IMG/VR virus record: IMGVR_UViG_2671180847_000012
DNA length: 21,907 bases
Source of the DNA: a virus
Taxonomy: Duplodnaviria > Heunggongvirae > Uroviricota > Caudoviricetes
Strand: one strand, 5' to 3'
Shown: in pieces, positions 1-19,016 of the stretch
How positions within the stretch are numbered: the first letter of the stretch is position 1
How the letters are laid out: the number at the start of each line of letters is the position of its first letter
The notes under the pieces: model-generated
What the model saw: only the letters and a program-made list of their open reading frames with translations
Database searches by the model: none
What the model was told of the DNA's origin: nothing
Program-made: the position numbers and the translations under genes

Positions 1-1275
1 TTATTTATTTGTAGCAAACTCAAACGGCCTTACCATACCGTTTCTGCTTGCATCAAGGTAGTCAGCCCACCATTGGAGCATCAGGCGACGTTGCTCAAGA
101 TGTTTTGCCTTGTGGGTATAAGCAGCACGGACGCTGTTGCTTTCCTTATGGCTCATTTGAAGCTCCACAGCGTCTTCTGACCATAGCCCGGACTCAATTA
201 AGGCACTACAGGCCAGAGTGCGGAAACCGTGTCCACAGATGTCCTGCTTCGTGTTATATCCCATATTACGCAGGGCTTTGTTGATGGTGTTTTCACTCAT
301 GGGTTTAAACGAGTCATAACAGCCAGTGAAGATTAATCCATCATCATGGCCTTCTTCATAAGTCAGTTGTCGGATCTCTTTGAGTATCTTCATGGCCTGC
401 TTACAAAGGGGAACGAAGTGCTTACGCTTCATTTTAGCCCCACGAGTCGAATGTTTGACGTTTTCAATTGCTTCACGCTGTTCGGGTATCACCCATAACT
501 TACTTTTGAAATCAATTTCAGACCAGCGAGCGAAACGCAACTCACTGGAACGAATGAAAATCATCAGATTGAGCTGTATTGCCAGTATGGTTAACCTGCG
601 GCCTTTGTATTCGGCAATTTTGTTCAGTAGCTGGGGTATTTCTTCCAGCTCAAGTGCAGGGCGGTGTTCAGTTTGTGGTTTCTGAACTGCACCTTCCATA
701 TCATAGGCTGGGTTATGGCGTATCAGCTTTTGCTGGACGGCATGACGCAGGATTGCCGTAATGTATTGTTGAATGCGCATGGCAACTTCAAGATAACCAA
801 GTGCCTCCACTTTTTTCACCGGAACCAGCAGATCACCCGTATCCAGTTCGGCAACATCTTTGTCACCGATTACCGGGAAGACATAAGTTTCAAGGCGCTT
901 CCATACGGCATCACCATAATCATCAGACCATTTTGTTTTCGTAGAGAACCACGCTTTGGCTACTGTTCTGAAGGAGCGTGTATTATCACGTTTGGCTTTA
1001 AGCTCTTTAACCTCTGCCTGTTTCTTTGCATTAGGGTCAATACCCTGAGCCAGAAGCCTTCTGGCCTCGTCACGGCGTTGTCTTGCGTCAGAAAGAGAAA
1101 CTGCAGGGTAAACACCAATAGAGAAGAGTTTTTGTTTCCCTTCGAAGCGGTAAGCCATTTGCCAGTATTTGGAACCCTTCGGGGTAACGCGAAGGAACAT
1201 ACCAAAGCCATCAGTCAGCTTGTATTCCTTCTCAAGGGGTTTTGCATTTTTTGCTTTGATATCAGTCAGTGACAT
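1..1275 (-). CDS. P4-family tyrosine integrase of a tRNA-Asn-associated island (island body is off-window to the left)
   Basis: Complete 424-aa ORF with GAGGGG Shine-Dalgarno upstream; N-terminal region typical of P4-like integrases and C-terminal catalytic-type region (HGFRTL...Y); lies directly beside the 3' end of tRNA-Asn and in the same orientation, the usual arrangement for tRNA-targeting islands. Confidence 0.85.
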   Translation of the reverse strand: MSLTDIKAKNAKPLEKEYKLTDGFGMFLRVTPKGSKYWQMAYRFEGKQKLFSIGVYPAVSLSDARQRRDEARRLLAQGIDPNAKKQAEVKELKAKRDNTRSFRTVAKAWFSTKTKWSDDYGDAVWKRLETYVFPVIGDKDVAELDTGDLLVPVKKVEALGYLEVAMRIQQYITAILRHAVQQKLIRHNPAYDMEGAVQKPQTEHRPALELEEIPQLLNKIAEYKGRRLTILAIQLNLMIFIRSSELRFARWSEIDFKSKLWVIPEQREAIENVKHSTRGAKMKRKHFVPLCKQAMKILKEIRQLTYEEGHDDGLIFTGCYDSFKPMSENTINKALRNMGYNTKQDICGHGFRTLACSALIESGLWSEDAVELQMSHKESNSVRAAYTHKAKHLEQRRLMLQWWADYLDASRNGMVRPFEFATNK

Positions 1276-2612: not shown

Positions 2613-2743
2613 CTATTCAACTAGTTATGTTAAACGTTGTCTGTGATTCGGCTCAACTTGAGAAAATTTTGAGAGAAAAAAACTAGCTAATATCATCCCT
2701 TAACATTATCTTGATTGAGTCGTCGTAAACGGAACTACTGGAC

Positions 2744-3802
2744 TTGAGCATGAATTCATCTAGCGCATTTGCTACGCCTGTTGTTGCCAACAATAGTCAA
2801 CAAGTATTATCTGATTTGATTACTGCGCTTGAGCAGACCAATCTATATTCATTTATTTCTCAGATAGCAACTGTGTATGGATTTCCACCTGTTAAAGGTG
2901 GAATGGATGCGGTTTTGAAGGCAATCGAGGCATCTATACAGAATCCAACAGCTGCATTTCCTAATGCTACATTAAATTCACTTGAGAAAATGATCGATAG
3001 AATAATAATCTCTGGTAGTCACTATTATTCTATTGACGAAACACAAGACCCAAATTTCCAAAGTGTGATCCAACATGTTTTTAGTACAAGTGTAACTGAT
3101 TCAAGGTATGAAAATTCTTATCCAAGAAAGTTATATGATGGTAATTCACTTGGGAACAATATCAAAGGTCTTTATCTGACTAAATTAATTGATACTGGCG
3201 ATGGCTTTGCTTTTATTTTCTCATATGTTTATAGTGTTAAGATTAAGGGAAGTCGCGGTTTAGGACTATCGTATACCCCACAGCAACAATTTATAACAGT
3301 ATTTGTTCCCCATAATAAAAATAGGATCGAGTATCGTCTTCCAAAAAATTTAGGGAAACGGGAGACAGCAAAAGCGCTTGCATCGGTGCGTAATAAATTT
3401 TTTGATATGCTCATCAGTACTAATAATACTATTCATTTCAAACAATTGAATTTTTATAATGTGATCAATAGCATTATTACTGATAGATCGTTCGGGAAAG
3501 CAGTTCAGATAATTTATGTTGGTTCTAATACAGGTTGTGATGCTAATGTCATTGGCCGCAAAGATCCGACATATGAAGCTCGAGATGTCGAGATTACTAA
3601 TAAGAAAAGAAATGATATTTATACACCACGTGCTGTAGCCGTAAGATTTTACAGAAATAATGGTGACTTTACAGAATTGGGTCTAGATCCAAATAAGAAA
3701 TCTTGGTTGGATGATAATTTTTGTGGCGAATTTTATGTTGATTTTCCTGAAGATACAATCTCATTAAATGGTTTAATTGAAAATGTCATCTCACGAAAAT
3801 GA
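2744..3802 (+). CDS. Hypothetical protein, cargo gene A of an att-proximal three-gene operon (no family recognised)
   Basis: 352-aa ORF, markedly AT-rich by eye compared with the flanking host and phage genes; its stop overlaps the start of the next ORF. No motif I can assign. Confidence 0.6.
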   Translation: MSMNSSSAFATPVVANNSQQVLSDLITALEQTNLYSFISQIATVYGFPPVKGGMDAVLKAIEASIQNPTAAFPNATLNSLEKMIDRIIISGSHYYSIDETQDPNFQSVIQHVFSTSVTDSRYENSYPRKLYDGNSLGNNIKGLYLTKLIDTGDGFAFIFSYVYSVKIKGSRGLGLSYTPQQQFITVFVPHNKNRIEYRLPKNLGKRETAKALASVRNKFFDMLISTNNTIHFKQLNFYNVINSIITDRSFGKAVQIIYVGSNTGCDANVIGRKDPTYEARDVEITNKKRNDIYTPRAVAVRFYRNNGDFTELGLDPNKKSWLDDNFCGEFYVDFPEDTISLNGLIENVISRK

Positions 3803-6866: not shown

Positions 6867-7403
6867 TTATGCGTATTTGTGTAACTCCGATAACTCGTTG
6901 AAGCGTTCCATAAACATCCCGTAGGCATGGCCCGGTGCCAGTGGAATCACGTTGAACATCTCTGTTGCCGGGATACCTTCCAGTACAGGCCAGAAAGAGC
7001 CATCATCAAGCCCGAGATCGCGGCGTTCGGTTGCCAGCATGATGAGATCGGCATATTTCACGGGCGTGCTCATAGCCTGAGGTAACCCGTATTTCTCACG
7101 GATTACGGCGTCTATTTTTTCTTCCATCCGTTTATAGTCAGGAAGGAGGCGTTTCAGTGGTGCGGGGATGTCCTGGCAATACGCTTCTGTTGCATCATGC
7201 ATTAATGCTTCAAAAGCAAATTCCTGCGGTACCAGCATGCTGCAAAGCACCGCATGTTGGGCGACGCTGTAGAAGTGTGAAAGGTGTCCTGCAAAGCGGC
7301 AGATATTTGAAAGGGAAACCGCGATATCGTTAATAACGATGTCGTCTTTATTTATCCTGTCATAATAAAAATGCTTCCCGGAAAAAGTTTTAATAAATGA
7401 CAT
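6867..7403 (-). CDS. HD-domain hydrolase, YfdR-like (5'-deoxynucleotidase family)
   Basis: Translation from MSFIKTFSGKHFYYD matches E. coli prophage YfdR as recalled, with an HD-type metal motif (ALMHDATEAY). GGAG lies upstream of the ATG at 7403; the ORF-track start at 7430 is an extension. Confidence 0.8.
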   Translation of the reverse strand: MSFIKTFSGKHFYYDRINKDDIVINDIAVSLSNICRFAGHLSHFYSVAQHAVLCSMLVPQEFAFEALMHDATEAYCQDIPAPLKRLLPDYKRMEEKIDAVIREKYGLPQAMSTPVKYADLIMLATERRDLGLDDGSFWPVLEGIPATEMFNVIPLAPGHAYGMFMERFNELSELHKYA

Positions 7404-10111: not shown

Positions 10112-10738
10112 TTAGAGTTCGTATTGAACTCCTTTGACTACACCAATGATAAGGCAATTACCATTGATAGGGATGTTGGGATACCGAGGATTTAATGGCA
10201 CTAAAAACTTTTGAGGGCCATCGATGACTAATTTTTTTACTGTAGCTTCGTTTGTTCCATCAAGTCGAGCGATGACTATTTTTCCATGACGAGGTTCTGC
10301 ATCTGGATCTACAATCACTGTTGCGCCTTCTGGTATTGTTGGGAGGCCATTAGGGTTAGTCATGGAGTCACCTTTAACCTCTAATGCAAATGAGTTATCA
10401 CCAATCTTTAATGATGTATCTACCCACTTGTCCACTTCACTAAACACTTCTGCTGCCCTGCACTCAGTAAACTGCCCAGCCTGAACCCACGATATTACAG
10501 GAACTCTGCGCATGTTTGTGACGAGTTTGCCTTCAAACTCAGCACCATAAAGAATGTAATCTATTGACGTATTGAAGAACTTCGCTAATTTCGAAAGTGC
10601 CTCCCCACCAGGGGTATTGATGTCTTTCTCCCAGTACCCCACAGCAACGTCGCTTACTCCACAAAATTTACCCAATTCTTTCTGGGACGTTCCGGTAACT
10701 CTTCTCAGAGCTTTTATACGCTGACCAACCGTTTCCAT
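10112..10738 (-). CDS. CI-like prophage repressor (HTH domain plus LexA-type S24 peptidase domain)
   Basis: N-terminal HTH (QKELGKFCGVSDVAVGYWEK) and C-terminal S24-like autopeptidase region (GDSMTNP...KKL); divergent from a Cro-like gene. Confidence 0.9.
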   Translation of the reverse strand: METVGQRIKALRRVTGTSQKELGKFCGVSDVAVGYWEKDINTPGGEALSKLAKFFNTSIDYILYGAEFEGKLVTNMRRVPVISWVQAGQFTECRAAEVFSEVDKWVDTSLKIGDNSFALEVKGDSMTNPNGLPTIPEGATVIVDPDAEPRHGKIVIARLDGTNEATVKKLVIDGPQKFLVPLNPRYPNIPINGNCLIIGVVKGVQYEL

Positions 10739-10760
10739 AGGAGCACCATTTCTTGAATTG

Positions 10761-10823
10761 CTAAGTAATCTTAGTTTTTATTGACCAAAGATAGATTTGT
10801 AATTAGCATCTAATAAAACTTAG
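10761..10823. promoter_or_regulatory. OR/PR region: two operator-like palindromes flanking a rightward promoter
   Basis: CTAAGTAATCTTAG (10761-10774) and CTAATAAAACTTAG (10810-10823) flank TTGACC (10781-10786), 17-nt spacer, TAGCAT (10804-10809); GGAGG precedes the cro-like ATG at 10836. Confidence 0.5.
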
Positions 10824-10835
10824 TTTGGAGGGCGT

Positions 10836-11036
10836 ATGACAACTGACGATATCGAAAGCTACTTCGGCAGTATTGAGAAAGTTGCTGCTTTTTTCGGCAT
10901 AACAACTGAAGCCGTTTATCAGTGGCGAAACCGTCCGGGCCAGTTAATTCCAAAAGGACGTGCAGCAGAAGCTGCATATAGAACTTGCGGACGGTTGCCA
11001 TTTAAACCTGAGCTTTATGAAAAATCTAATGGATAA
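10836..11036 (+). CDS. Cro-like / YdaS-type HTH regulator
   Basis: 66-aa ORF divergent from the repressor gene, with an HTH-like segment (VAAFFGITTEAVYQWRNR). Confidence 0.75.
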   Translation: MTTDDIESYFGSIEKVAAFFGITTEAVYQWRNRPGQLIPKGRAAEAAYRTCGRLPFKPELYEKSNG

Positions 11037-11625
11037 ATCGATTAACAGAAACCACAGAACGATGAGGCTAACCGTGGGTAAGCATCACTGGAAAGTAGAA
11101 AAACAGCCTGAGTGGTACGTGAAAGCTGTCAGAAAAACTATCGCAGCGTTGCCGGGTGGTTACGCTGAAGCAGCTGACTGGCTGGATGTAACAGAAAACG
11201 CATTATTTAACCGCCTTCGTGCCGATGGCGATCAGATTTTCCCGCTGGGATGGGCAATGATTTTGCAACGTGCTGGTGGAACTCACTTCATTGCTGACGC
11301 TGTGGCGCAGTCTGCAAATGGCGTCTTTGTGTCTCTTCCTGACGTCGAGGATGTGGACAACGCCGATATTAACCAGCGCCTGCTGGAAGTCATTGAACAG
11401 ATTGGCAGTTATTCCAGACAGATTCGTTCGGCAATCGAAGACGGTGTGGTGGAACCGCATGAGAAGACAGCAATTAACGACGAGCTGTATCTCTCAATTT
11501 CGAAGCTGCAGGAGCATGCAGCACTGGTCTACAAAATCTTTTGCATTTCAGAAAGTAATGACGCCCGCGAGTGTGCAGCTCCGGGCGCCGTGGCGTGTCG
11601 TGACTGTGGAGAAACTAACGCATGA
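11029..11625 (+). CDS. CII-like / YdaT-type phage regulatory protein
   Basis: Position after cro and size fit; family assignment is from memory. Start is ambiguous (10960, 11017 or 11029); the ATG at 11029 overlaps the cro stop. Confidence 0.55.
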
Positions 11626-11960
11626 ACAGTTTAACAACACACTACCGTCGCTCGCAACTGATTGCGCTTCCTGTACCGGGTGGAAAAGCGAAGGTGGAGT
11701 ATTGCTATGCAGTTAATGTACCAGGTGACAGGGAAATTGTAACCCACAGCTTTGCTGAGTGGGCTGTGGGTGATTTCAACCGGCAGAAGGAGACAGTCCT
11801 TTGCGACAAGTTAACCGCTGGTTCAAAGATCACTACGGAGTGCCCGTCAGAGTCATTCGTTGGGAGCCGGAAACACAACGAGTTATCTACCTCCGCGAAG
11901 GCTATGAGCATGAGTGCTTCAGCCCGCTCGAACAGTTTCGTCGTAAATTCAGGGAAATAG
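11622..11960 (+). CDS. Hypothetical protein with a probable frame discontinuity (see findings)
   Basis: ATG overlaps the stop of the preceding gene (ATGA). The N-terminal half looks protein-like; the C-terminal third is low-complexity, while an alternative frame from 11801 to 11980 looks more protein-like. Confidence 0.4.
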
Positions 11961-11969
11961 AGGTCGGTC

Positions 11970-12911
11970 ATGAGCACTAAATTAACCGGCTATGTATGGG
12001 ATAGTTGCGCTGCATCAGGCATGAAATTATCCAGCGTGGCAATTATGGCCCGCCTGGCTGATTTCAGTAATGACGAAGGTGTGTGCTGGCCATCAATTGA
12101 AACTATTGCCCGTCAGATTGGCGCGGGGATGAGTACCGTCAGGACGGCTATCGCACGGCTGGAAGCAGAAGGCTGGTTAACGCGTAAGGCGCGTCGCCAG
12201 GGTAACCGCAATGCGTCGAATGTTTATCAGCTTAACGTTGCGAAGCTTCAGGCAGCGGCATTTTCTCAACTGTCAGATTCTGACCCGTCAAAATCTGACG
12301 CATCAAAATCTGACCCGTCAAAATTTGATGCGTCGAAATCTGGCAAAAAAGCGGGTTTTCACCCGTCAGAATCTGGCGGGGATCCGTCAGTAAAATCAAA
12401 ACATGATCCGTCAGATAAAAAACCTTCTCGTCCGGACGCTTCGCAACCGGACACGCAGACGGATGAACAGGATTTTTTAACTCGCCATCCTGATGCGGTT
12501 GTATTCAGCCCTAAAAAGCGCCAGTGGGGAACGCAGGATGATTTGACCTGCGCACAGTGGCTCTGGAAAAAAATCATCGCCCTGTACGAGCAAGCCGCCG
12601 AATGTGACGGCGAGGTGGTTCGTCCCAAAGAACCGAACTGGACAGCCTGGGCAAACGAAATTCGCCTGATGTGTGTACAGGATGGTCGTACTCACAAACA
12701 AATCTGCGAGATGTACAGCCGCGTCAGCCGCGATCCGTTCTGGTGCCGTAACGTGCTCAGCCCGTCGAAGTTGCGGGAAAAATGGGATGAGCTTTCCCTG
12801 CGCTTATCACCGTCCGTCAGCACGTACACCGAAAAACGCGAAGACCCGTACTTCAAATCCAGTTACGACAACGTGGACTACAGCCAGATCCCGGCAGGAT
12901 TCAGGGGGTGA
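11970..12911 (+). CDS. Replication initiator, lambda O-like (N-terminal winged-helix domain)
   Basis: 313-aa ORF with an N-terminal HTH-type region, a central repeat-rich linker that coincides with DNA iterons, and position after the CII-like gene. Confidence 0.75.
   Translation: MSTKLTGYVWDSCAASGMKLSSVAIMARLADFSNDEGVCWPSIETIARQIGAGMSTVRTAIARLEAEGWLTRKARRQGNRNASNVYQLNVAKLQAAAFSQLSDSDPSKSDASKSDPSKFDASKSGKKAGFHPSESGGDPSVKSKHDPSDKKPSRPDASQPDTQTDEQDFLTRHPDAVVFSPKKRQWGTQDDLTCAQWLWKKIIALYEQAAECDGEVVRPKEPNWTAWANEIRLMCVQDGRTHKQICEMYSRVSRDPFWCRNVLSPSKLREKWDELSLRLSPSVSTYTEKREDPYFKSSYDNVDYSQIPAGFRG
12270..12424. repeat. Iteron-like direct repeats inside the initiator gene (candidate replication origin)
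   Basis: Imperfect tandem units of about 17-18 bp built around CCGTCAAAATCTGAC, followed by an A/T-rich patch near 12471-12480; organisation analogous to ori-lambda lying inside the O gene. Confidence 0.55.
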
Positions 12912-12913
12912 TC

Positions 12914-13402
12914 ATGAGTCTGTTAAATGACGTTCAGAAATTCATTGAAGCCCATCCGGGGTGTACTTCCGGAGACATTGCGGATGCTTTTGCAGGTTAC
13001 TCACGGCAGCGCGTTCTGCAGTCTGCAAGCAAGTTACGTCAGAGTGGGCGTGTGGCTCACCGTTGTGAAGGAGATACACGCAGACATTTCCCGCGCCTGA
13101 CTGAGAGAGCGCAGGAGCCGGAACCACAACCAGTTCGTGAAACCAGACCTGTGCGCAATTTCTATGTCGGCACTAACGATCCACGGGTGATTTTGTGCCT
13201 GACCCGCCAGGCTGAAGAACTGGAGTCCAGGGGCTTATACCGTCGTGCTGCAACGGTGTGGATGGCGGCATTCCGTGAAAGCCACTCCCAGCCAGAACGA
13301 AACAATTTTCTGGCGCGTCGTGAACGGTGTTTACGGAAAAGCAGTAAGCGGGCTGCATCAGGTGAAGAGTGGTATCTCTCAGGGAATTACGTGGGGGCTT
13401 AA
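12914..13402 (+). CDS. Hypothetical regulator-like phage protein (possible PerC-like C-terminal motif)
   Basis: GGGGG precedes the ATG at 12914 (ORF-track GTG start at 12908). The C-terminal segment LESRGLYRRAATVWMAAF...RRERC resembles PerC/Pch-type activators from memory only. Confidence 0.45.
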   Translation: MSLLNDVQKFIEAHPGCTSGDIADAFAGYSRQRVLQSASKLRQSGRVAHRCEGDTRRHFPRLTERAQEPEPQPVRETRPVRNFYVGTNDPRVILCLTRQAEELESRGLYRRAATVWMAAFRESHSQPERNNFLARRERCLRKSSKRAASGEEWYLSGNYVGA

Positions 13403-14055
13403 TGAGTAATAAATATTGCCAGGCGCTGGTGGAACTGCGGAACAAACCAGCCCATGAACTGAAGGAAGTGGGCGATCAGTGGCGCACGCCGGACAACATT
13501 TTCTGGGGAATTAACACCCTGTTTGGCCCGTTTGTTCTGGATCTGTTCACTGACGGTGATAACGCCAAATGTGCTGCGTATTACACGGCGGAAGACAACG
13601 CGCTGGCGCATGACTGGTCAGAACGCCTTGCGGAGCTTAAAGGTGCTGCCTTTGGTAATCCCCCATACAGCCGCGCCAGTCAGCATGAGGGGCAATACAT
13701 CACCGGTATGCGTTACATCATGAAGCATGCCAGTGCCATGCGTGATAAAGGCGGGCGCTATGTTTTCCTGATCAAAGCTGCCACCAGCGAAGTGTGGTGG
13801 CCGGAAGATGCAGATCATATTGCTTTTATTCGCGGGCGTATTGGTTTTGAACTGCCTGCCTGGTTTATCCCGAAGGATGAGAAGCAGGTGCCGACAGGCG
13901 CTTTCTTCGCTGGTGCTATTGCTGTTTTCGACAAGACCTGGAAGGGACCGGCAATCAGCTACATCGGGCGCGATGAACTTGAGGCATGTGGTGAGGCCTT
14001 TCTGGCGCAGGTTCGCCAGCAGGCAGAAAAACTGGTCAGGGAGATGGCGGCATGA
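13402..14055 (+). CDS. Phage Dam-family DNA N6-adenine methyltransferase
   Basis: NPPY catalytic motif (AFGNPPYS); size about 217 aa; ATG overlaps the upstream stop (TAATG). Confidence 0.8.
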   Translation: MSNKYCQALVELRNKPAHELKEVGDQWRTPDNIFWGINTLFGPFVLDLFTDGDNAKCAAYYTAEDNALAHDWSERLAELKGAAFGNPPYSRASQHEGQYITGMRYIMKHASAMRDKGGRYVFLIKAATSEVWWPEDADHIAFIRGRIGFELPAWFIPKDEKQVPTGAFFAGAIAVFDKTWKGPAISYIGRDELEACGEAFLAQVRQQAEKLVREMAA

Positions 14056-14378
14056 CGACGTTAACTCAATGCCAGCAGCAGGTGCTGGATATGCTGATTT
14101 CTTATCAGAAAGAACGTGGCTTCCCGCCAACCAATCAGGAGGTGGCAACCATGCTGGGATACCGTTCAGTGAATGCAGCGGTGGAGCATCTTCGCGCACT
14201 GGAGAAAAAAGGCGTCATCACGATAAAGCGTGGCGTGGCCCGGGGCATCACGCTTCATACTGCGGTGAAGGACGACGACAGCGAGGCGGTCGGGATTATC
14301 CGCTCACTGCTTGCCGGTGAGGAAAACGCAAGGCTGCGTGCAGCCCACTGGTTACATGAGAGGGGCCTGAAAGTATGA
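14052..14378 (+). CDS. LexA N-terminal DNA-binding-domain protein lacking the S24 peptidase domain
   Basis: Aligns by eye with the E. coli LexA N-terminal domain (LTxxQQxV...PPTxxExAxxLGxRSxNAAxEHLxALxxKGVIxI...RGI) but ends at 108 aa with no Ala-Gly cleavage site or Ser/Lys dyad. Confidence 0.75.
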   Translation: MTTLTQCQQQVLDMLISYQKERGFPPTNQEVATMLGYRSVNAAVEHLRALEKKGVITIKRGVARGITLHTAVKDDDSEAVGIIRSLLAGEENARLRAAHWLHERGLKV

Positions 14379-14764
14379 AGCTGATCCTGCCTTTTCCGCC
14401 CAGCGTGAACACGTACTGGCGACACCCCAACAAAGGGGCATTTGCTGGTAAGAGCCTGATAAGCGCGGCGGGGCGAAAATTTCAGAGCGCGGCGTGCGCA
14501 GCAATAGTTGAGCAGTTACGTCGTCTGCCGAAACCAACGTCGGCACCTGCTTCAGTGGAGATCGTGTTGTTTCCGCCGGATAACCGGATCCGTGATCTGG
14601 ACAACTATAACAAGGCGCTGTTTGACGCCCTGACCAACGCGGGTGTGTGGGAAGACGACAGACAGGTGAAAAGAATGCTGGTGGAGTGGGGACCGGTTAT
14701 CCCGGAAGGGAAGGTCGAGATCACTATCAGTAAGTACGAGAAAACGGCGGGTGCAGCCGCCTGA
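14375..14764 (+). CDS. rusA: RusA-family Holliday junction resolvase
   Basis: 129-aa ORF with RusA-like features (PPSVNTYW, DLDNYNKALFDALTNAGVWEDD); start overlaps the upstream stop. Confidence 0.85.
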   Translation: MKLILPFPPSVNTYWRHPNKGAFAGKSLISAAGRKFQSAACAAIVEQLRRLPKPTSAPASVEIVLFPPDNRIRDLDNYNKALFDALTNAGVWEDDRQVKRMLVEWGPVIPEGKVEITISKYEKTAGAAA

Positions 14765-14783
14765 TTAAGAGGAGAAACGAAGT

Positions 14784-15593
14784 ATGAATAATCTGATGGT
14801 CATTGATGGTATTGAAGTTCGTCGTGATGCTTATGGGCGTTACAGCCTGAACGATCTGCATCGCGCAGCAGTAGCATCTGGTGCAAATGCCAGAACCAAG
14901 GAGCCAGGAAAGTTTCTTTCCAGCCAACAAACTGTTGAGCTTGTTCATGAATTGACCAACACCCAGAATTTGGGTGTTGACCCGGTGAGTGTGATTCATG
15001 GGGGAAATGAACGGGGAACGTATGTCTGCAAGGAACTGGTGTATGCCTATGCAATGTGGATCAGCCCGTCATTCCATCTGAAGGTGATCCGTACTTTCGA
15101 TATGGTAACCAGCGCACCGGAAAAATTATCCGGGCAGGCTGCTGACAAGATGCAGGCTGGTGTGATTCTGCTGGACTTTATGCGCAGGGAGTTAAACCTG
15201 TCTAACTCATCAGTGCTTGGTGCCTGTCAGAAACTCCAGGAGGCTGTTGGCTTACCGAATCTGGCACCGCGCTATGCCATTGATGCTCCTGCTGACGCGC
15301 CTGATGGCTCAAGTCGCCCCACGCTGTCGCTGAGTGCACTGCTGAAACAGTATGGTATCCGCCTTACGGCTAATCAGGCATATCACCAGATGGTGAAGCT
15401 GGGGATCGTCGAGCAGCGCGAACGATACAGCCGTACCGCGATTAACAACATCAAAAAATTCTGGTCGCTGACAGCGAAAGGCTGCATGTTCGGCAAGAAC
15501 ATCACCAGTCCTGCAAATCCGCGCGAGACGCAGCCGCATTTCTTCGAATCCCGATTCCCTGAGCTGTTAAAGCTGCTCGATACCGTTCATTGA
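14784..15593 (+). CDS. KilA-N domain protein (antirepressor-like)
   Basis: N-terminal segment typical of KilA-N domain proteins; GAGGAG Shine-Dalgarno upstream. Confidence 0.65.
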   Translation: MNNLMVIDGIEVRRDAYGRYSLNDLHRAAVASGANARTKEPGKFLSSQQTVELVHELTNTQNLGVDPVSVIHGGNERGTYVCKELVYAYAMWISPSFHLKVIRTFDMVTSAPEKLSGQAADKMQAGVILLDFMRRELNLSNSSVLGACQKLQEAVGLPNLAPRYAIDAPADAPDGSSRPTLSLSALLKQYGIRLTANQAYHQMVKLGIVEQRERYSRTAINNIKKFWSLTAKGCMFGKNITSPANPRETQPHFFESRFPELLKLLDTVH

Positions 15594-15594
15594 G

Positions 15595-16590
15595 GTGACT
15601 GTGAGAGCACTACTGACCCCTGAAATTGCCCCGCGTATGGGGATCGTATTGTTCAGACCTGGTTCAGAGCTGATGCCCCTGTTTATGCAGGGGCGTGTCC
15701 TGCTGGAGCCTGAGCCGGAACGTTATTCATCTTTTGCCAGTGGTGCCGTTCCGGCGGCATCACAACCGCTGGCGGATGATCCTGTCGTTCGGGCCGTGTT
15801 CCGCAATGAGGCAGTGATCCGTCGTGCTGGTGGCGTGGAATGTCTTGAAAGCTGGTTACTTCGTGAAAAAGGCTGCCAGTGGCCTCATTCCGACTGGCAC
15901 AGCGAGAACATGACAACAATGCGACACGCGCCGGGCGCAATCCGTCTGTGCTGGCACTGCGATAACCAGCTGCGCGATCAGTTCACGGAACGGCTGGAAT
16001 CAATGGCAACGGATAACTGTGCCCGCTGGGTGTTGTCTGTTGTGCGTCGGGATCTCGGTTTTGATGACAGTCACGTTGTGACAATGCCGGAACTGTGCTG
16101 GTGGCTGATTCGTAATGACCTGGCGGATGCCTTACCGGAAAGTGCAGCCCGTAAGGCACTGAGATTACCGAAGCCTGTTGTGCCGTCTGTCACCCGGGAA
16201 AGTGACCTTGTGCCTTCGGTTCCTGCCACCAGCATCATCCAGGATAAGGCGAAAAAGGTGCTGGCGCTGAAAGTGGATCCGGAGTCGCCGGAGTCTTTTA
16301 TGTTACGCCCAAAACGTCGCCGCTGGGTTAATGAAAAGTACACGCGCTGGGTTAAGACACAGCCGTGTGCATGTTGTGGAAAGCCTGCTGATGATCCCCA
16401 CCACCTGATAGGCCACGGTCAGGGGGGAATGGGTACAAAAGCGCATGACCTCTTTGTGTTGCCTTTGTGCAGAAAGCATCACGACGAGCTGCATGCGGAT
16501 ACCGTGGCATTTGAAGAGAAGTATGGCTCCCAGCTGGAGCTGATATTTCGTTTTATCGATCGTGCGCTGGCAATAGGCGTACTGGCGTAA
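15595..16590 (+). CDS. DUF968-type phage protein with C-terminal HNH-like motif
   Basis: C-terminal CxxC...HHLIGHGQGGMGTKAHD...CRKHHDELH pattern; sits in the rusA-to-Q interval typical of lambdoid nin regions. GTG start, position uncertain. Confidence 0.7.
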   Translation: MTVRALLTPEIAPRMGIVLFRPGSELMPLFMQGRVLLEPEPERYSSFASGAVPAASQPLADDPVVRAVFRNEAVIRRAGGVECLESWLLREKGCQWPHSDWHSENMTTMRHAPGAIRLCWHCDNQLRDQFTERLESMATDNCARWVLSVVRRDLGFDDSHVVTMPELCWWLIRNDLADALPESAARKALRLPKPVVPSVTRESDLVPSVPATSIIQDKAKKVLALKVDPESPESFMLRPKRRRWVNEKYTRWVKTQPCACCGKPADDPHHLIGHGQGGMGTKAHDLFVLPLCRKHHDELHADTVAFEEKYGSQLELIFRFIDRALAIGVLA

Positions 16591-16603
16591 GTGGAGAACG
16601 AGC

Positions 16604-17356
16604 ATGAACCTTGAAGCCTTACCGAAATATTACTCCCCAAAATCTCCAAAATTGAGCGATGACGCACCGGCGACAGGCTCGGGTGGTTTAACAATTACGG
16701 ATGTAATGGCTGCGCAGGGGATGGTGCAGTCGAAAGCACCGCTTGGGTTTGCCTTATTCCTGGCAAAAGTTGGTGTTCAGGATCCTCAGTTTGCGATTGA
16801 AGGTCTGCTCAATTACGCGATGGCACTGGATAACCCGACATTGAACAAATTGAGTGAAGAAACCCGGTTACAGATCATCCCTTACCTTGTGAATTTTGCC
16901 TTTGCTGATTATTCCAGGTCTGCGGCAAGTAAGGCTCGCTGTGAGCATTGTGCTGGTACTGGATTTCATAATGTATTGCGCGAAGTGGTGAAACACTCCA
17001 GAAGCGGGGAATCTGTTATCAAGGAAGAGTGGGTGAAGGAACTGTGTCAGCATTGTCATGGTAAGGGAGAAGTCAGCACAGCGTGCAGAGGGTGTAAGGG
17101 TAAAGGTATTGTCCTGGATGAAAAAAGAACCCGGCTTCATGGCACGCCTGTTTATAAGGTTTGTGGGCGTTGCAATGGAAACCGGTTTAGCCGTTTACCA
17201 ACCACACTGGCGCGGCTTCATGTCCAGAAGCTGGTACCAGACCTGACGGATTATCAGTGGTACAAAGGATATGCAGATGTCATTGATAAACTGGTTACAA
17301 AGTGCTGGCAGGAAGAAGCATATGCAGAGATACAATTGAGAAAGGTGACAAGATAA
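16604..17356 (+). CDS. Late-gene antiterminator Q (Qin-type, about 250 aa)
   Basis: Cys-rich zinc-finger-like motifs (CEHCAGTG, CQHCHGKG, CRGCKGKG, CGRCNG) and a position immediately upstream of a promoter plus short-transcript terminator pair. Confidence 0.8.
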   Translation: MNLEALPKYYSPKSPKLSDDAPATGSGGLTITDVMAAQGMVQSKAPLGFALFLAKVGVQDPQFAIEGLLNYAMALDNPTLNKLSEETRLQIIPYLVNFAFADYSRSAASKARCEHCAGTGFHNVLREVVKHSRSGESVIKEEWVKELCQHCHGKGEVSTACRGCKGKGIVLDEKRTRLHGTPVYKVCGRCNGNRFSRLPTTLARLHVQKLVPDLTDYQWYKGYADVIDKLVTKCWQEEAYAEIQLRKVTR

Positions 17357-17813: not shown

Positions 17814-17963
17814 TGGCGGTTTCCTGCTGTGAAAATGGGCGGCTGGTGGGTGTTGGTAGCACCTGCCAGCCATTCGCTCATGCTTACTGGTCACAAGCGA
17901 ACCACGGCCCACTGCTTTAGCGCAAAAGCAGAGTGAGCCTACCAGAGTTACGCTTACTGATCC

Positions 17964-19016
17964 ATGAAAAATACTGTAAAAATAAACAGTGTTGATTTAA
18001 TCAACGCTGATTGCCTGCATTTTATTCAGTCCCTGCCTGATGATTCCATTGACCTGATTGTTACCGATCCGCCGTACTTCAAGGTGAAACCCAACGGCTG
18101 GGACAATCAGTGGAAAGGGGACGAAGATTACCTTAAGTGGCTGGACCACTGTCTGGCCCAGTTCTGGCGGGTGTTAAAACCTGCCGGAAGCCTTTACCTG
18201 TTCTGTGGGCATCGCCTGGCATCTGATATTGAGATCATGATGCGTGAACGTTTCAACGTGCTTAACCATATCATCTGGGCGAAGCCGTCCGGACGTTGGA
18301 ATGGGTGTAATAAAGAAAGTCTGCGCGCATATTTTCCTGCCACAGAGCGCGTTCTGTTTGCTGAACATTACCAGGGGCCATATCGCGGCAAAAGTGACGG
18401 CTATGCAGCAAAAGAAAGGGAACTCAAACAGCACATAATGGCACCGCTGATATCGTATTTCAGGGATGCTCGTGCCGAACTGGGTATAACGGCAAAACAA
18501 ATTGCCGAAGCCACAGGTAAGAAAAATATGGTTTCCCACTGGTTTGGTGCCAGTCAGTGGCAGTTGCCGAATGAGGCTGACTATCGGAAGTTACAGGCAC
18601 TGTTTTCCCGTATAGCGGCAGAGAAGTTTCAGGAACAACAACTGGAACAACCACACCACCAGCTGGTGGCATCTTATGATTCACTGAATCGTAAATATTC
18701 TGAATTGCTGGATGAGTTTAAATCTCTCCGGCGCTATTTCTCCGTATCAGTCTCCGTGCCTTATACCGATGTCTGGATGCATAAACCCGTTCAGTTCTAC
18801 CCGGGGAAACATCCGTGTGAGAAACCGGCGGATATGCTCAGGCAAATAATCAATGCCAGTAGTCGACCAGGTGATCTGGTTGCTGATTTTTTTATGGGAT
18901 CCGGTTCCACAATAAAAGCAGCAATGGCGCTGGGGCGTCGGGCCTTAGGTGTTGAGCTTGAGTCAGAGCGGTTTAATCAGACAGTGAAAGAGATAAACGA
19001 GCTGGTGGGGAAATAA
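17964..19016 (+). CDS. Orphan DNA methyltransferase (beta-class N6-adenine or N4-cytosine)
   Basis: DPPY motif near the N-terminus (LIVTDPPYF) and an AdoMet-binding FxGxG-type motif near the C-terminus ([10 protein letters not shown]); no adjacent restriction endonuclease gene is evident. Confidence 0.85.

Follow-up and report, generated by a model that had tools for sequence, protein, structure and literature searches.

A LexA-type DNA-binding domain without a peptidase, encoded directly 5' of rusA in lambdoid prophages of Escherichia coli

The viral record IMGVR_UViG_2671180847_000012 (Caudoviricetes; 21,907 nucleotides, the whole of which we refer to as the window) is an E. coli prophage that adjoins tRNA-Ser and mtfA and matches prophages in several complete genomes at 99-100% identity. 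In the run of genes that lies 3' of its CI/Cro-type immunity region, an intact open reading frame (ORF) of 108 codons encodes what we call here the LexA-like protein, a LexA-type DNA-binding domain that lacks the S24 peptidase of LexA and ends in a short tail. Genes in this run are separated by short gaps or joined by stop/start overlaps, and the LexA-like gene is joined on both sides: its ATG overlaps the stop codon of a phage Dam methyltransferase gene, and its own stop codon overlaps the start codon of rusA (ATGA in both cases; Table 1). No promoter is predicted directly 5' of the gene.

Pfam PF01726 (LexA_DNA_bind) covers residues 1-65 over the full length of the model (positions 1-65 of 65) at 69 bits (E=2.9e-19), where the cut-off is 23.7 bits, and BLASTP aligns residues 1-90 with E. 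coli LexA at 43% identity (E=1e-21). An AlphaFold model, for which the input alignment comprised 23 family sequences, has a mean pLDDT of 84, with helices at residues 6-22, 28-35 and 40-52 and a beta-hairpin wing at residues 56-68. Foldseek places this model on the N-terminal domain of LexA (1lea, 3jso) with a root-mean-square deviation (rmsd) of 1.1-1.4 Å over 67-70 residues at about 50% identity, and the top matches among solved structures are LexA in every case. A Pfam search of the 108-residue protein finds no match to Peptidase_S24, and 108 residues are too few to hold the Ser/Lys catalytic dyad (Ser119/Lys156 in LexA). Consistent with this, the LexA equivalog model of NCBIfam (TIGR00498) is matched over positions 1-91 of 203 and at 70.8 bits, below its curated cut-off of 110.95 bits, while PHROG 362 is matched end to end (residues 1-108 against profile positions 1-106 of 106, E=1.4e-59). 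Because the self-cleaving domain is missing, the LexA-like protein is unable to cut itself. The original prediction for this locus, made from the letters alone, had described a real ORF in a nin-like region next to rusA, whose product could be aligned by eye with the winged helix of LexA over about 70 residues and had neither the peptidase domain nor the Ser/Lys dyad. All of this is borne out, with Pfam, BLASTP and the AlphaFold overlay in agreement on the alignment; the domain call, a LexA-type DNA-binding domain without S24, is correct.

How widespread is the gene? Of 5426 complete E. coli genomes, 2233 (41%) carry it, and more than 99% of these carriers have it at full length, so that 2223 of the 5426 genomes hold an intact copy; at least 587 IMG/VR stretches encode the protein as well. 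A protein that is 95-100% identical is encoded in 61 phage records, among them SfV (orf42), SfII, SfIV, mEp460, cdtI, 1720a-02 and many Stx2a and Stx2c phages, and the PHROG 362 members of these phages are the same protein, encoded at a locus that also corresponds, with Dam or PerC on one side and RusA on the other. Among putative accessory regulators, the gene is therefore one of the commoner ones in lambdoid prophages of E. coli and Shigella, including Stx2a/Stx2c, cdt and Shigella serotype-converting phages. Note that the domain call is already part of public annotation. In the near-identical prophage of E. coli F3 the gene product is annotated as WP_000210164.1, and in the phage records it goes by names such as 'LexA-like protein', 'repressor, lexA family' and 'transcriptional repressor'. 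Pham 237, labelled 'LexA family transcriptional regulator' (pfam01726), is recorded for 15 phages in a survey of Stx phages that offers no functional work (PMC8136144); judged by the Pfam label only, this pham is probably our gene. We found no experimental study of the enterobacterial family in the literature, where the gene was met in genome catalogues only. Stand-alone LexA-domain proteins of 65-150 residues are frequent among predicted viral structures, and a stand-alone LexA domain in a phage is a known kind of protein with one characterised example. What we add is modest: a conserved C-terminal hairpin, an Ala-Gly pair that is not conserved, strict synteny with RusA, drift at DNA-contacting residues, and independence of the gene from the immunity and late modules of its phages.

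The part of the protein that follows the winged helix is modelled as a two-helix hairpin. Its sequence follows the pattern hydrophobic-hydrophobic-R-x-L, turn, A-R-x-R-A-x-x-hydrophobic-L, which is kept in relatives at 37-50% identity. The tail has no credible Pfam match (the best, to the NIL domain, has E=0.049 and lies under the cut-off), Foldseek finds no counterpart of the hairpin in LexA structures, and matches of the whole model to repressors of the BlaI/MecI/MntR type are weak (E>0.01, rmsd 6-11 Å). On the strength of the model, the hairpin is a candidate dimerisation or partner-binding module that replaces the cleavage-site and peptidase region of LexA, so that any dimerisation of the phage protein would run through these two helices and not, as in LexA, through the C-terminal domain. 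In Klebsiella phage Kp4866-6 (locus L123, 2296-2772) and in Citrobacter sp. OP27 (locus L098, 7001-7474) the LexA N-terminal domain is fused to another C-terminal domain, an uncharacterised stretch of about 90 residues (PHROG 29443/24920), at the same syntenic site 5' of RusA. Since the swap takes place at a fixed locus, the C-terminal part behaves as an exchangeable module.

The tail also contains an Ala-Gly pair. The original prediction was wrong to hold that the protein stops well before any such site: in both BLASTP and HMMER alignments the LLAGE of the LexA-like protein stands opposite VAAGE of LexA, Ala88-Gly89 being aligned with the scissile bond Ala84-Gly85. This alignment might suggest that the protein is a pseudo-substrate or decoy, whose Ala88-Gly89 docks in the active site of LexA, CI or UmuD, or on RecA*, and is either cut in trans or inhibits cleavage. 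Intermolecular cleavage of LexA, which Kim and Little are said to have described in 1993, would make such a reaction conceivable. However, the pair is not conserved. Close homologues have Asn in place of Gly89 (LLANE) or Val in place of Ala88 (LLVGE), and in relatives at 37-50% identity Ala-Gly is mostly gone (VERE, LTRK, IAEE, MADT). Moreover, the AlphaFold model places Ala88-Gly89 in a turn between two helices and not in a strand-loop of the LexA type. Non-conservation and predicted helical-turn location together speak against Ala88-Gly89 as a cleavage site; the pair is probably vestigial or coincidental, cleavage by another peptidase is unlikely because the pair is not conserved, and we regard the decoy as scarcely credible.

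Winged helix and tail have been kept together over considerable divergence. In a profile search against 1.84 billion representatives, short relatives of 104-135 residues at 37-50% identity retain both. Full-length matches in genomes all fall in the Enterobacteriaceae (Shigella, Citrobacter, Kosakonia, Enterobacter and Silvania) with one exception, a 534-bp contig that resembles contamination. Gene order is kept as well: at 42-51% identity the arrangement is still replication protein, [PerC, Dam], LexA-like, RusA, [KilA-N/Ant], DUF968 and Q (optional members in brackets), and RusA, directly 3' of the gene even there, is its constant neighbour. Among 81 related loci, the 300 nucleotides 3' of the gene are 90-100% identical in 78, and Dam lies 5' in 49. 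The ratio of non-synonymous to synonymous change (dN/dS) is about 0.1 relative to the Shigella copy and 0.2-0.26 relative to two distant copies for which dS is near saturation, dS being saturated for the other two. The gene is thus under purifying selection. At the same time it diverges faster than its neighbours, distant relatives being 42-51% identical in the LexA-like protein versus 65-77% in RusA and 54-70% in DUF968.

Rapid divergence, and the resemblance to a lexA gene truncated just past the cleavage-site region, might be taken to mean that we are looking at the decaying remnant of a captured lexA gene that has no present function. We consider this very improbable. A remnant would not be expected to show a dN/dS of about 0.1 or to remain full length in nearly all of its 2233 carriers, nor would it keep its length and tail pattern down to 37% identity along with its position and translational coupling. 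A separate comparison of the window with loci L089, L083, L086 and L091 showed that the PerC-like protein, too, outpaces the enzymes of the block: in Citrobacter the PerC-like and LexA-like proteins are 47% and 67% identical to those of the window, versus 88-89% for the O-like protein, RusA and DUF968.

Table 1. Positions in the window of the LexA-like gene, its parts and the features discussed with it.
Feature	Position	Strand	Basis or remark
LexA-like coding sequence, 108 residues (PHROG 362; NCBI name 'LexA family transcriptional regulator')	14052-14378	+	ORF, Pfam, PHROG
GGGAG, Shine-Dalgarno-like motif	14039-14043	+	8 nucleotides 5' of the ATG, within the end of the Dam gene; read from the sequence
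Winged helix-turn-helix domain, residues 1-69	14052-14258	+	AlphaFold, Foldseek, Pfam
Recognition-helix region, residues 38-52, RSVNAAVEHLRALEK (LexA: RSPNAAEEHLKALAR)	14163-14207	+	Alignments
C-terminal two-helix hairpin (predicted), residues 76-87 and 93-103	14277-14360	+	AlphaFold, pLDDT about 88
Ala88-Gly89 codons, GCC GGT	14313-14318	+	Aligned with LexA Ala84-Gly85 scissile bond
Sole strong canonical LexA box of the window, TACTGTAAAAATAAACAGTG	17972-17991		Codons 3-9 of a late-region DNA methyltransferase
Dam, phage N6-adenine methyltransferase	13402-14055	+	Pfam PF05869, TIGR01712, annotation
RusA Holliday-junction resolvase	14375-14764	+	Pfam PF05866
O-like replication protein	11970-12911		Early-right gene run
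PerC-like regulator	12908-13402		Early-right gene run
KilA-N protein	14784-15593		Same gene run
DUF968/HNH protein	15595-16590		Same gene run
Q-type antiterminator	16604-17356		Same gene run
CI-type repressor, S24 peptidase	10112-10738	minus	Motifs VQAGQ, GDSM and VKKL; annotated 'LexA family protein'

Having established that the gene encodes a selected LexA-type domain, we asked what DNA it might read. The residues cited as DNA contacts of LexA are Ser39, Asn41, Ala42, Glu44 and Glu45 (PMC3091678, PMC13416735). In the LexA-like protein Ser39, Asn41, Ala42 and Glu45 are kept, as is Arg64-Gly65 of the wing, while Glu44 and Pro40 have both become Val. Identity to LexA, counted on the BLASTP alignment, is 65% over residues 38-68 versus 41% over residues 1-37, and within the E. 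coli/Shigella/Salmonella clade helix 3 is nearly invariant. Beyond this clade the picture changes. No short relative has Glu at position 44, and at position 45 the relatives from Citrobacter, Enterobacter, Silvania and Klebsiella show Glu, Gly, Ala, Asp or Thr. Compared with RSPNAAEEH in host LexA, helix 3 reads RSVNAAVEH in E. coli and Shigella, RSVNTITGH in Citrobacter, ASGNAAFEH in Kosakonia, ASPNAAVAH in Enterobacter, SSPNAASDH in Silvania and RSPNAAATH in Klebsiella. The idea that the contact residues of LexA are conserved therefore holds for four of the five positions and for the wing, but not for Glu44, nor for positions 44 and 45 across relatives.

On what these contacts imply, two readings compete. 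According to the first, the protein is a faithful surrogate of LexA at SOS boxes: it binds CTGT-N8-ACAG, is uncleavable, and re-represses LexA-controlled promoters after host LexA has been lost during induction. Its targets might include SOS genes of the host, colicins, antirepressors that LexA controls in rival prophages, and LexA boxes in phage genes. The retained contacts, the excess of identity around the recognition helix and wing, and the near-invariance of helix 3 in the E. coli/Shigella/Salmonella clade all fit this idea. So does the behaviour of LexA itself, whose N-terminal fragment (residues 1-84), likewise a lone LexA DNA-binding domain, is reported to retain some SOS-box binding and repression unless it is degraded by ClpXP (PMC10584840). 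That fragment is monomeric and is removed by ClpXP via its new C-terminus, whereas the phage protein has a conserved 40-residue tail and another C-terminus, so that its stability and oligomeric state should differ. Neher and colleagues are said to have described, in 2003, an exposed ...VAA signal at the end of the LexA fragment; the phage protein does not end in ...VAA.

Against a faithful surrogate speaks, first of all, the substitution of Glu44, which no short relative restores. In the Enterobacteriaceae one expects the SOS box to be that of E. coli, and it is in phages of such hosts that Glu45 has been exchanged for Gly, Ala, Asp or Thr. Furthermore, if the hairpin takes the place of the LexA dimerisation domain, the geometry that it sets for a dimer need not give half-sites spaced by N8.

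Where, then, are canonical boxes found? The window contains a single site that matches CTGT-N8-ACAG without mismatch, TACTGTAAAAATAAACAGTG, which lies in the late region. It scores 22.4 bits on a position weight matrix built from E. coli LexA sites in the literature, a value that falls among those of the real sites, and taken by itself such a strong box favours a LexA surrogate. However, the exact box occurs in 20 of 80 viral loci that carry the LexA-like gene, and it tracks the methyltransferase module instead. It is kept in the methyltransferase genes of Citrobacter phage phiNP, Klebsiella phage Kp4866-6 and a Kosakonia prophage, where the enzymes are about 80% identical and the box takes LexA-compatible variant forms (…ATATCCAGCA in Klebsiella, TACTGTAAATTTAAACAGTA in Kosakonia). 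Phage phiNP has the box but lacks the LexA-like gene, which rules out a link between the two, and in Klebsiella and Kosakonia the box stays canonical although helix 3 of the LexA-like protein differs. The box therefore belongs to the methyltransferase module and is most simply a site for host LexA. By its sequence and position it suggests SOS/LexA control of, or a roadblock at, the methyltransferase gene; that the LexA-like protein is one of its ligands is possible.

Two observations on this module stand apart from the question of the LexA-like protein. The enzyme is an orphan DNA methyltransferase (17964-19016), and homologous boxes lie at 7084-7103 in locus L122, 7093-7112 in L123 and 6794-6813 in L092. 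In addition, phages of E. coli, Citrobacter, Klebsiella and Kosakonia are more than 90% identical over the roughly 135 nucleotides 5' of its ATG (about 17828-17963), a stretch that is better conserved than the gene itself and folds into long hairpins (-62 kcal/mol by RNAalifold). It may be a structured leader or regulatory RNA; a search of Rfam gave no family match for it, and variation is too low for a covariation test.

Other canonical boxes lie within CI genes of related phages that carry the LexA-like gene, and these too count in favour of a surrogate. A perfect LexA box, TACTGTTTTTATATACAGTA, is located at 3139-3158 of locus L007, inside a CI-like gene (2675-3367, minus strand) for a 230-residue S24 repressor, in the part that encodes the linker region. 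We take its sequence to be that of the umuDC operator. Boxes in CI genes are also found at 4103 in L087 and 1865 in L089, with variants in 24 viral loci.

As a companion of the LexA-like gene, by contrast, the canonical box fails. It is present in 24 of 47 loci with full flanks, which rules out a constant association, and in most distant relatives there is none within about 6-10 kb; loci without one are L083-L086, L090, L091, L094, L096 and L098. Allowing one mismatch, CTGT-N8-ACAG occurs 15 times in the window versus 6.9 expected from shuffles, but other spacers give 8-12 sites (one of them gives 2), so that most of the excess reflects CTG/CAG composition and we do not treat it as a signal. 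For the original prediction, which proposed an uncleavable SOS-box binder, the outcome is divided: a LexA homologue without S24 and without self-cleavage is indeed encoded, and one strong box is present in the prophage, but contact positions 44 and 45 vary and boxes are not consistently nearby. Overall, we think of the faithful surrogate as plausible and as a rival to be taken seriously, though on the doubtful side. Its more elaborate form is somewhat more doubtful still. Here a RecA-proof LexA surrogate would re-close CTGT-type operators in the course of induction and silence both the host SOS response and the LexA-gated elements of competitors, which would be antirepressor-controlled prophages, colicins and SOS-induced toxins or defences; within phage genes it might act on LexA boxes at the 5' end of the late methyltransferase and in the CI genes of related phages.

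The reading that we prefer, with a probability of roughly 0.4, is that the LexA-like protein descends from LexA, has drifted in specificity and serves as a regulator proof against DNA damage, which would work by analogy with gp6 of the Bacillus thuringiensis tectivirus GIL01. Drifted specificity is suggested because positions 44 and 45 vary, because the protein outpaces its neighbours, and because new half-site specificity is known to arise through substitutions at the N-terminal end of helix 3 in LexA (PMC4951493).

The prophage encodes a CI-type repressor with an S24 peptidase and is, from its sequence, predicted to be SOS-inducible. By its position, the LexA-like gene would belong to the early-right (delayed-early) class, with its protein appearing once the phage has infected or SOS has induced the prophage; under an S24-type CI this would mean that the protein is made just as host LexA is being destroyed. 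We picture the following course of events. An ancestral LexA N-terminal domain would have lost its RecA-responsive S24 peptidase and gained a short helical hairpin. Translation, coupled to that of Dam and RusA, would use the early-right (pR) transcript, so that the protein would not appear until the phage has infected a cell or the SOS response has brought about cleavage of the prophage CI. Helix 3 (RSVNAAVEH) would enter the major groove as it does in LexA, and the hairpin would most likely supply the dimer contact that LexA takes from its C-terminal domain, so that a palindrome could be read. With neither a catalytic Ser/Lys nor a conserved scissile bond, the protein should not be removable by DNA damage. 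Its operator would have drifted from that of host LexA, perhaps retaining related CTGT-type half-sites with other details or spacing possibly different, and its role would be that of a regulator of the phage programme and not of a faithful LexA copy.

GIL01 gp6 provides the precedent for such a protein. It is a truncated LexA homologue that binds its own palindromic operator, which overlaps the -35 of the late promoter, and directly activates this promoter, P3 (PMC6182141). It hence shows that a phage-encoded LexA N-terminal winged helix without S24, expressed as an early gene in an SOS-wired phage switch, can be a true regulator with an operator unlike the host LexA box. There are differences. 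At 66 residues gp6 has no C-terminal hairpin, it acts at a single late promoter, jointly with host LexA and gp7, and the gene described here is not tied to any particular late (Q/pR') module. BLASTP gives no alignment between gp6 and the LexA-like protein at E<=100. Homology is thus ruled out, a Pfam-level fold being all that the two have in common, and given also the 66 residues without a tail, gp6 is an analogue of independent origin and not a relative.

That the analogy with gp6 is functional only is one of several points that weigh against a regulator of drifted specificity. Another is that, with four of five contacts and the wing kept, the protein in this clade may still bind canonical SOS boxes. 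A third concerns the operator. Sharing of 14-mers among 44 loci indicates that gene and replication/nin block (about 11000-16600) are passed on together, whereas the immunity region and the Q/late region are shared at about 18% and 15%, respectively. A protein that is 100% identical accordingly occurs with differing immunity and Q/late modules. This speaks against targets in these two modules but is compatible with one in the host (a constant target in the host would suit a surrogate of LexA), and block inheritance makes a module-specific phage operator, of the kind that gp6 has at its late promoter, unlikely for this clade. The block itself contains almost no non-coding DNA, and we found no operator in it: neither a conserved palindrome nor a stretch outside catalytic parts that is unusually conserved. 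Other half-site spacings, or the order ACAG-Nx-CTGT, yield no site common to most related loci. Inverted repeats in 10700-16700 comprise ori-like iterons, one 9-bp repeat (both described below) and repeats at chance level, and the 20-nucleotide stretches of RusA and DUF968 that are conserved across nine lineages are not palindromic and, as we read them, fall in coding motifs, for example 'HHLIGHG' of the HNH domain. The target would then have to be coding DNA of the block, the host chromosome, or no promoter at all.

This last option corresponds to a further scenario, in which the LexA-like protein is a DNA-binding accessory of replication or recombination that tethers or modulates RusA, the DUF968/HNH protein, the O-like initiator or Dam, and has no role in transcription. 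Negative operator searches are what one would expect under this scenario, as is inheritance with the replication/nin block in place of the immunity or late modules; the gene always lies directly 5' of RusA with a stop/start overlap, and the C-terminal swap at the same site in Klebsiella and Citrobacter phages would fit an exchangeable adaptor. Yet RusA occurs in many phages that have no LexA-like gene, and translational coupling in nin regions commonly joins unrelated functions. That recognition helix and wing are so well conserved suggests specific reading of DNA, and we found no precedent for a LexA N-terminal domain in such an accessory role, which we therefore judge to be unlikely.

What is at stake differs between the readings. 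Were the regulator of drifted specificity to have its own operator, it would be the second phage private regulator to have evolved independently from a LexA DNA-binding domain, after GIL01 gp6. Were SOS-type boxes bound instead, the virus would override the host DNA-damage response exactly while that response is on. If the faithful surrogate is true, this override would be widespread, given a gene carried by two in five complete E. coli genomes and by Stx2 phages, and could affect induction of Shiga-toxin phages, competition between prophages and SOS-driven mutagenesis.

Some further features of the window deserve mention. A role for the gene in a defence system was considered and dropped, the PADLOC match being at chance level only. 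The first 2612 nucleotides hold a second tyrosine integrase gene (1-1275, minus strand) adjoining tRNA-Asn, followed by mtfA and tRNA-Ser; the studied prophage starts after tRNA-Ser, so that two integrative elements flank the tRNA cluster. Between ymfL and the DUF4222/replication genes lies a perfect 9-bp inverted repeat, ACCCACAGC-N12-GCTGTGGGT (11742-11771), in a region with two competing ORFs, one of 112 residues (11622-11960) and a 59-residue DUF4222 (11801-11980). Finally, tandem and inverted copies of TCAAAATCTGAC at 12272-12334, within the O-like gene, encode DPSKSDASKS repeats and resemble origin iterons located inside the initiator gene, as in lambda.

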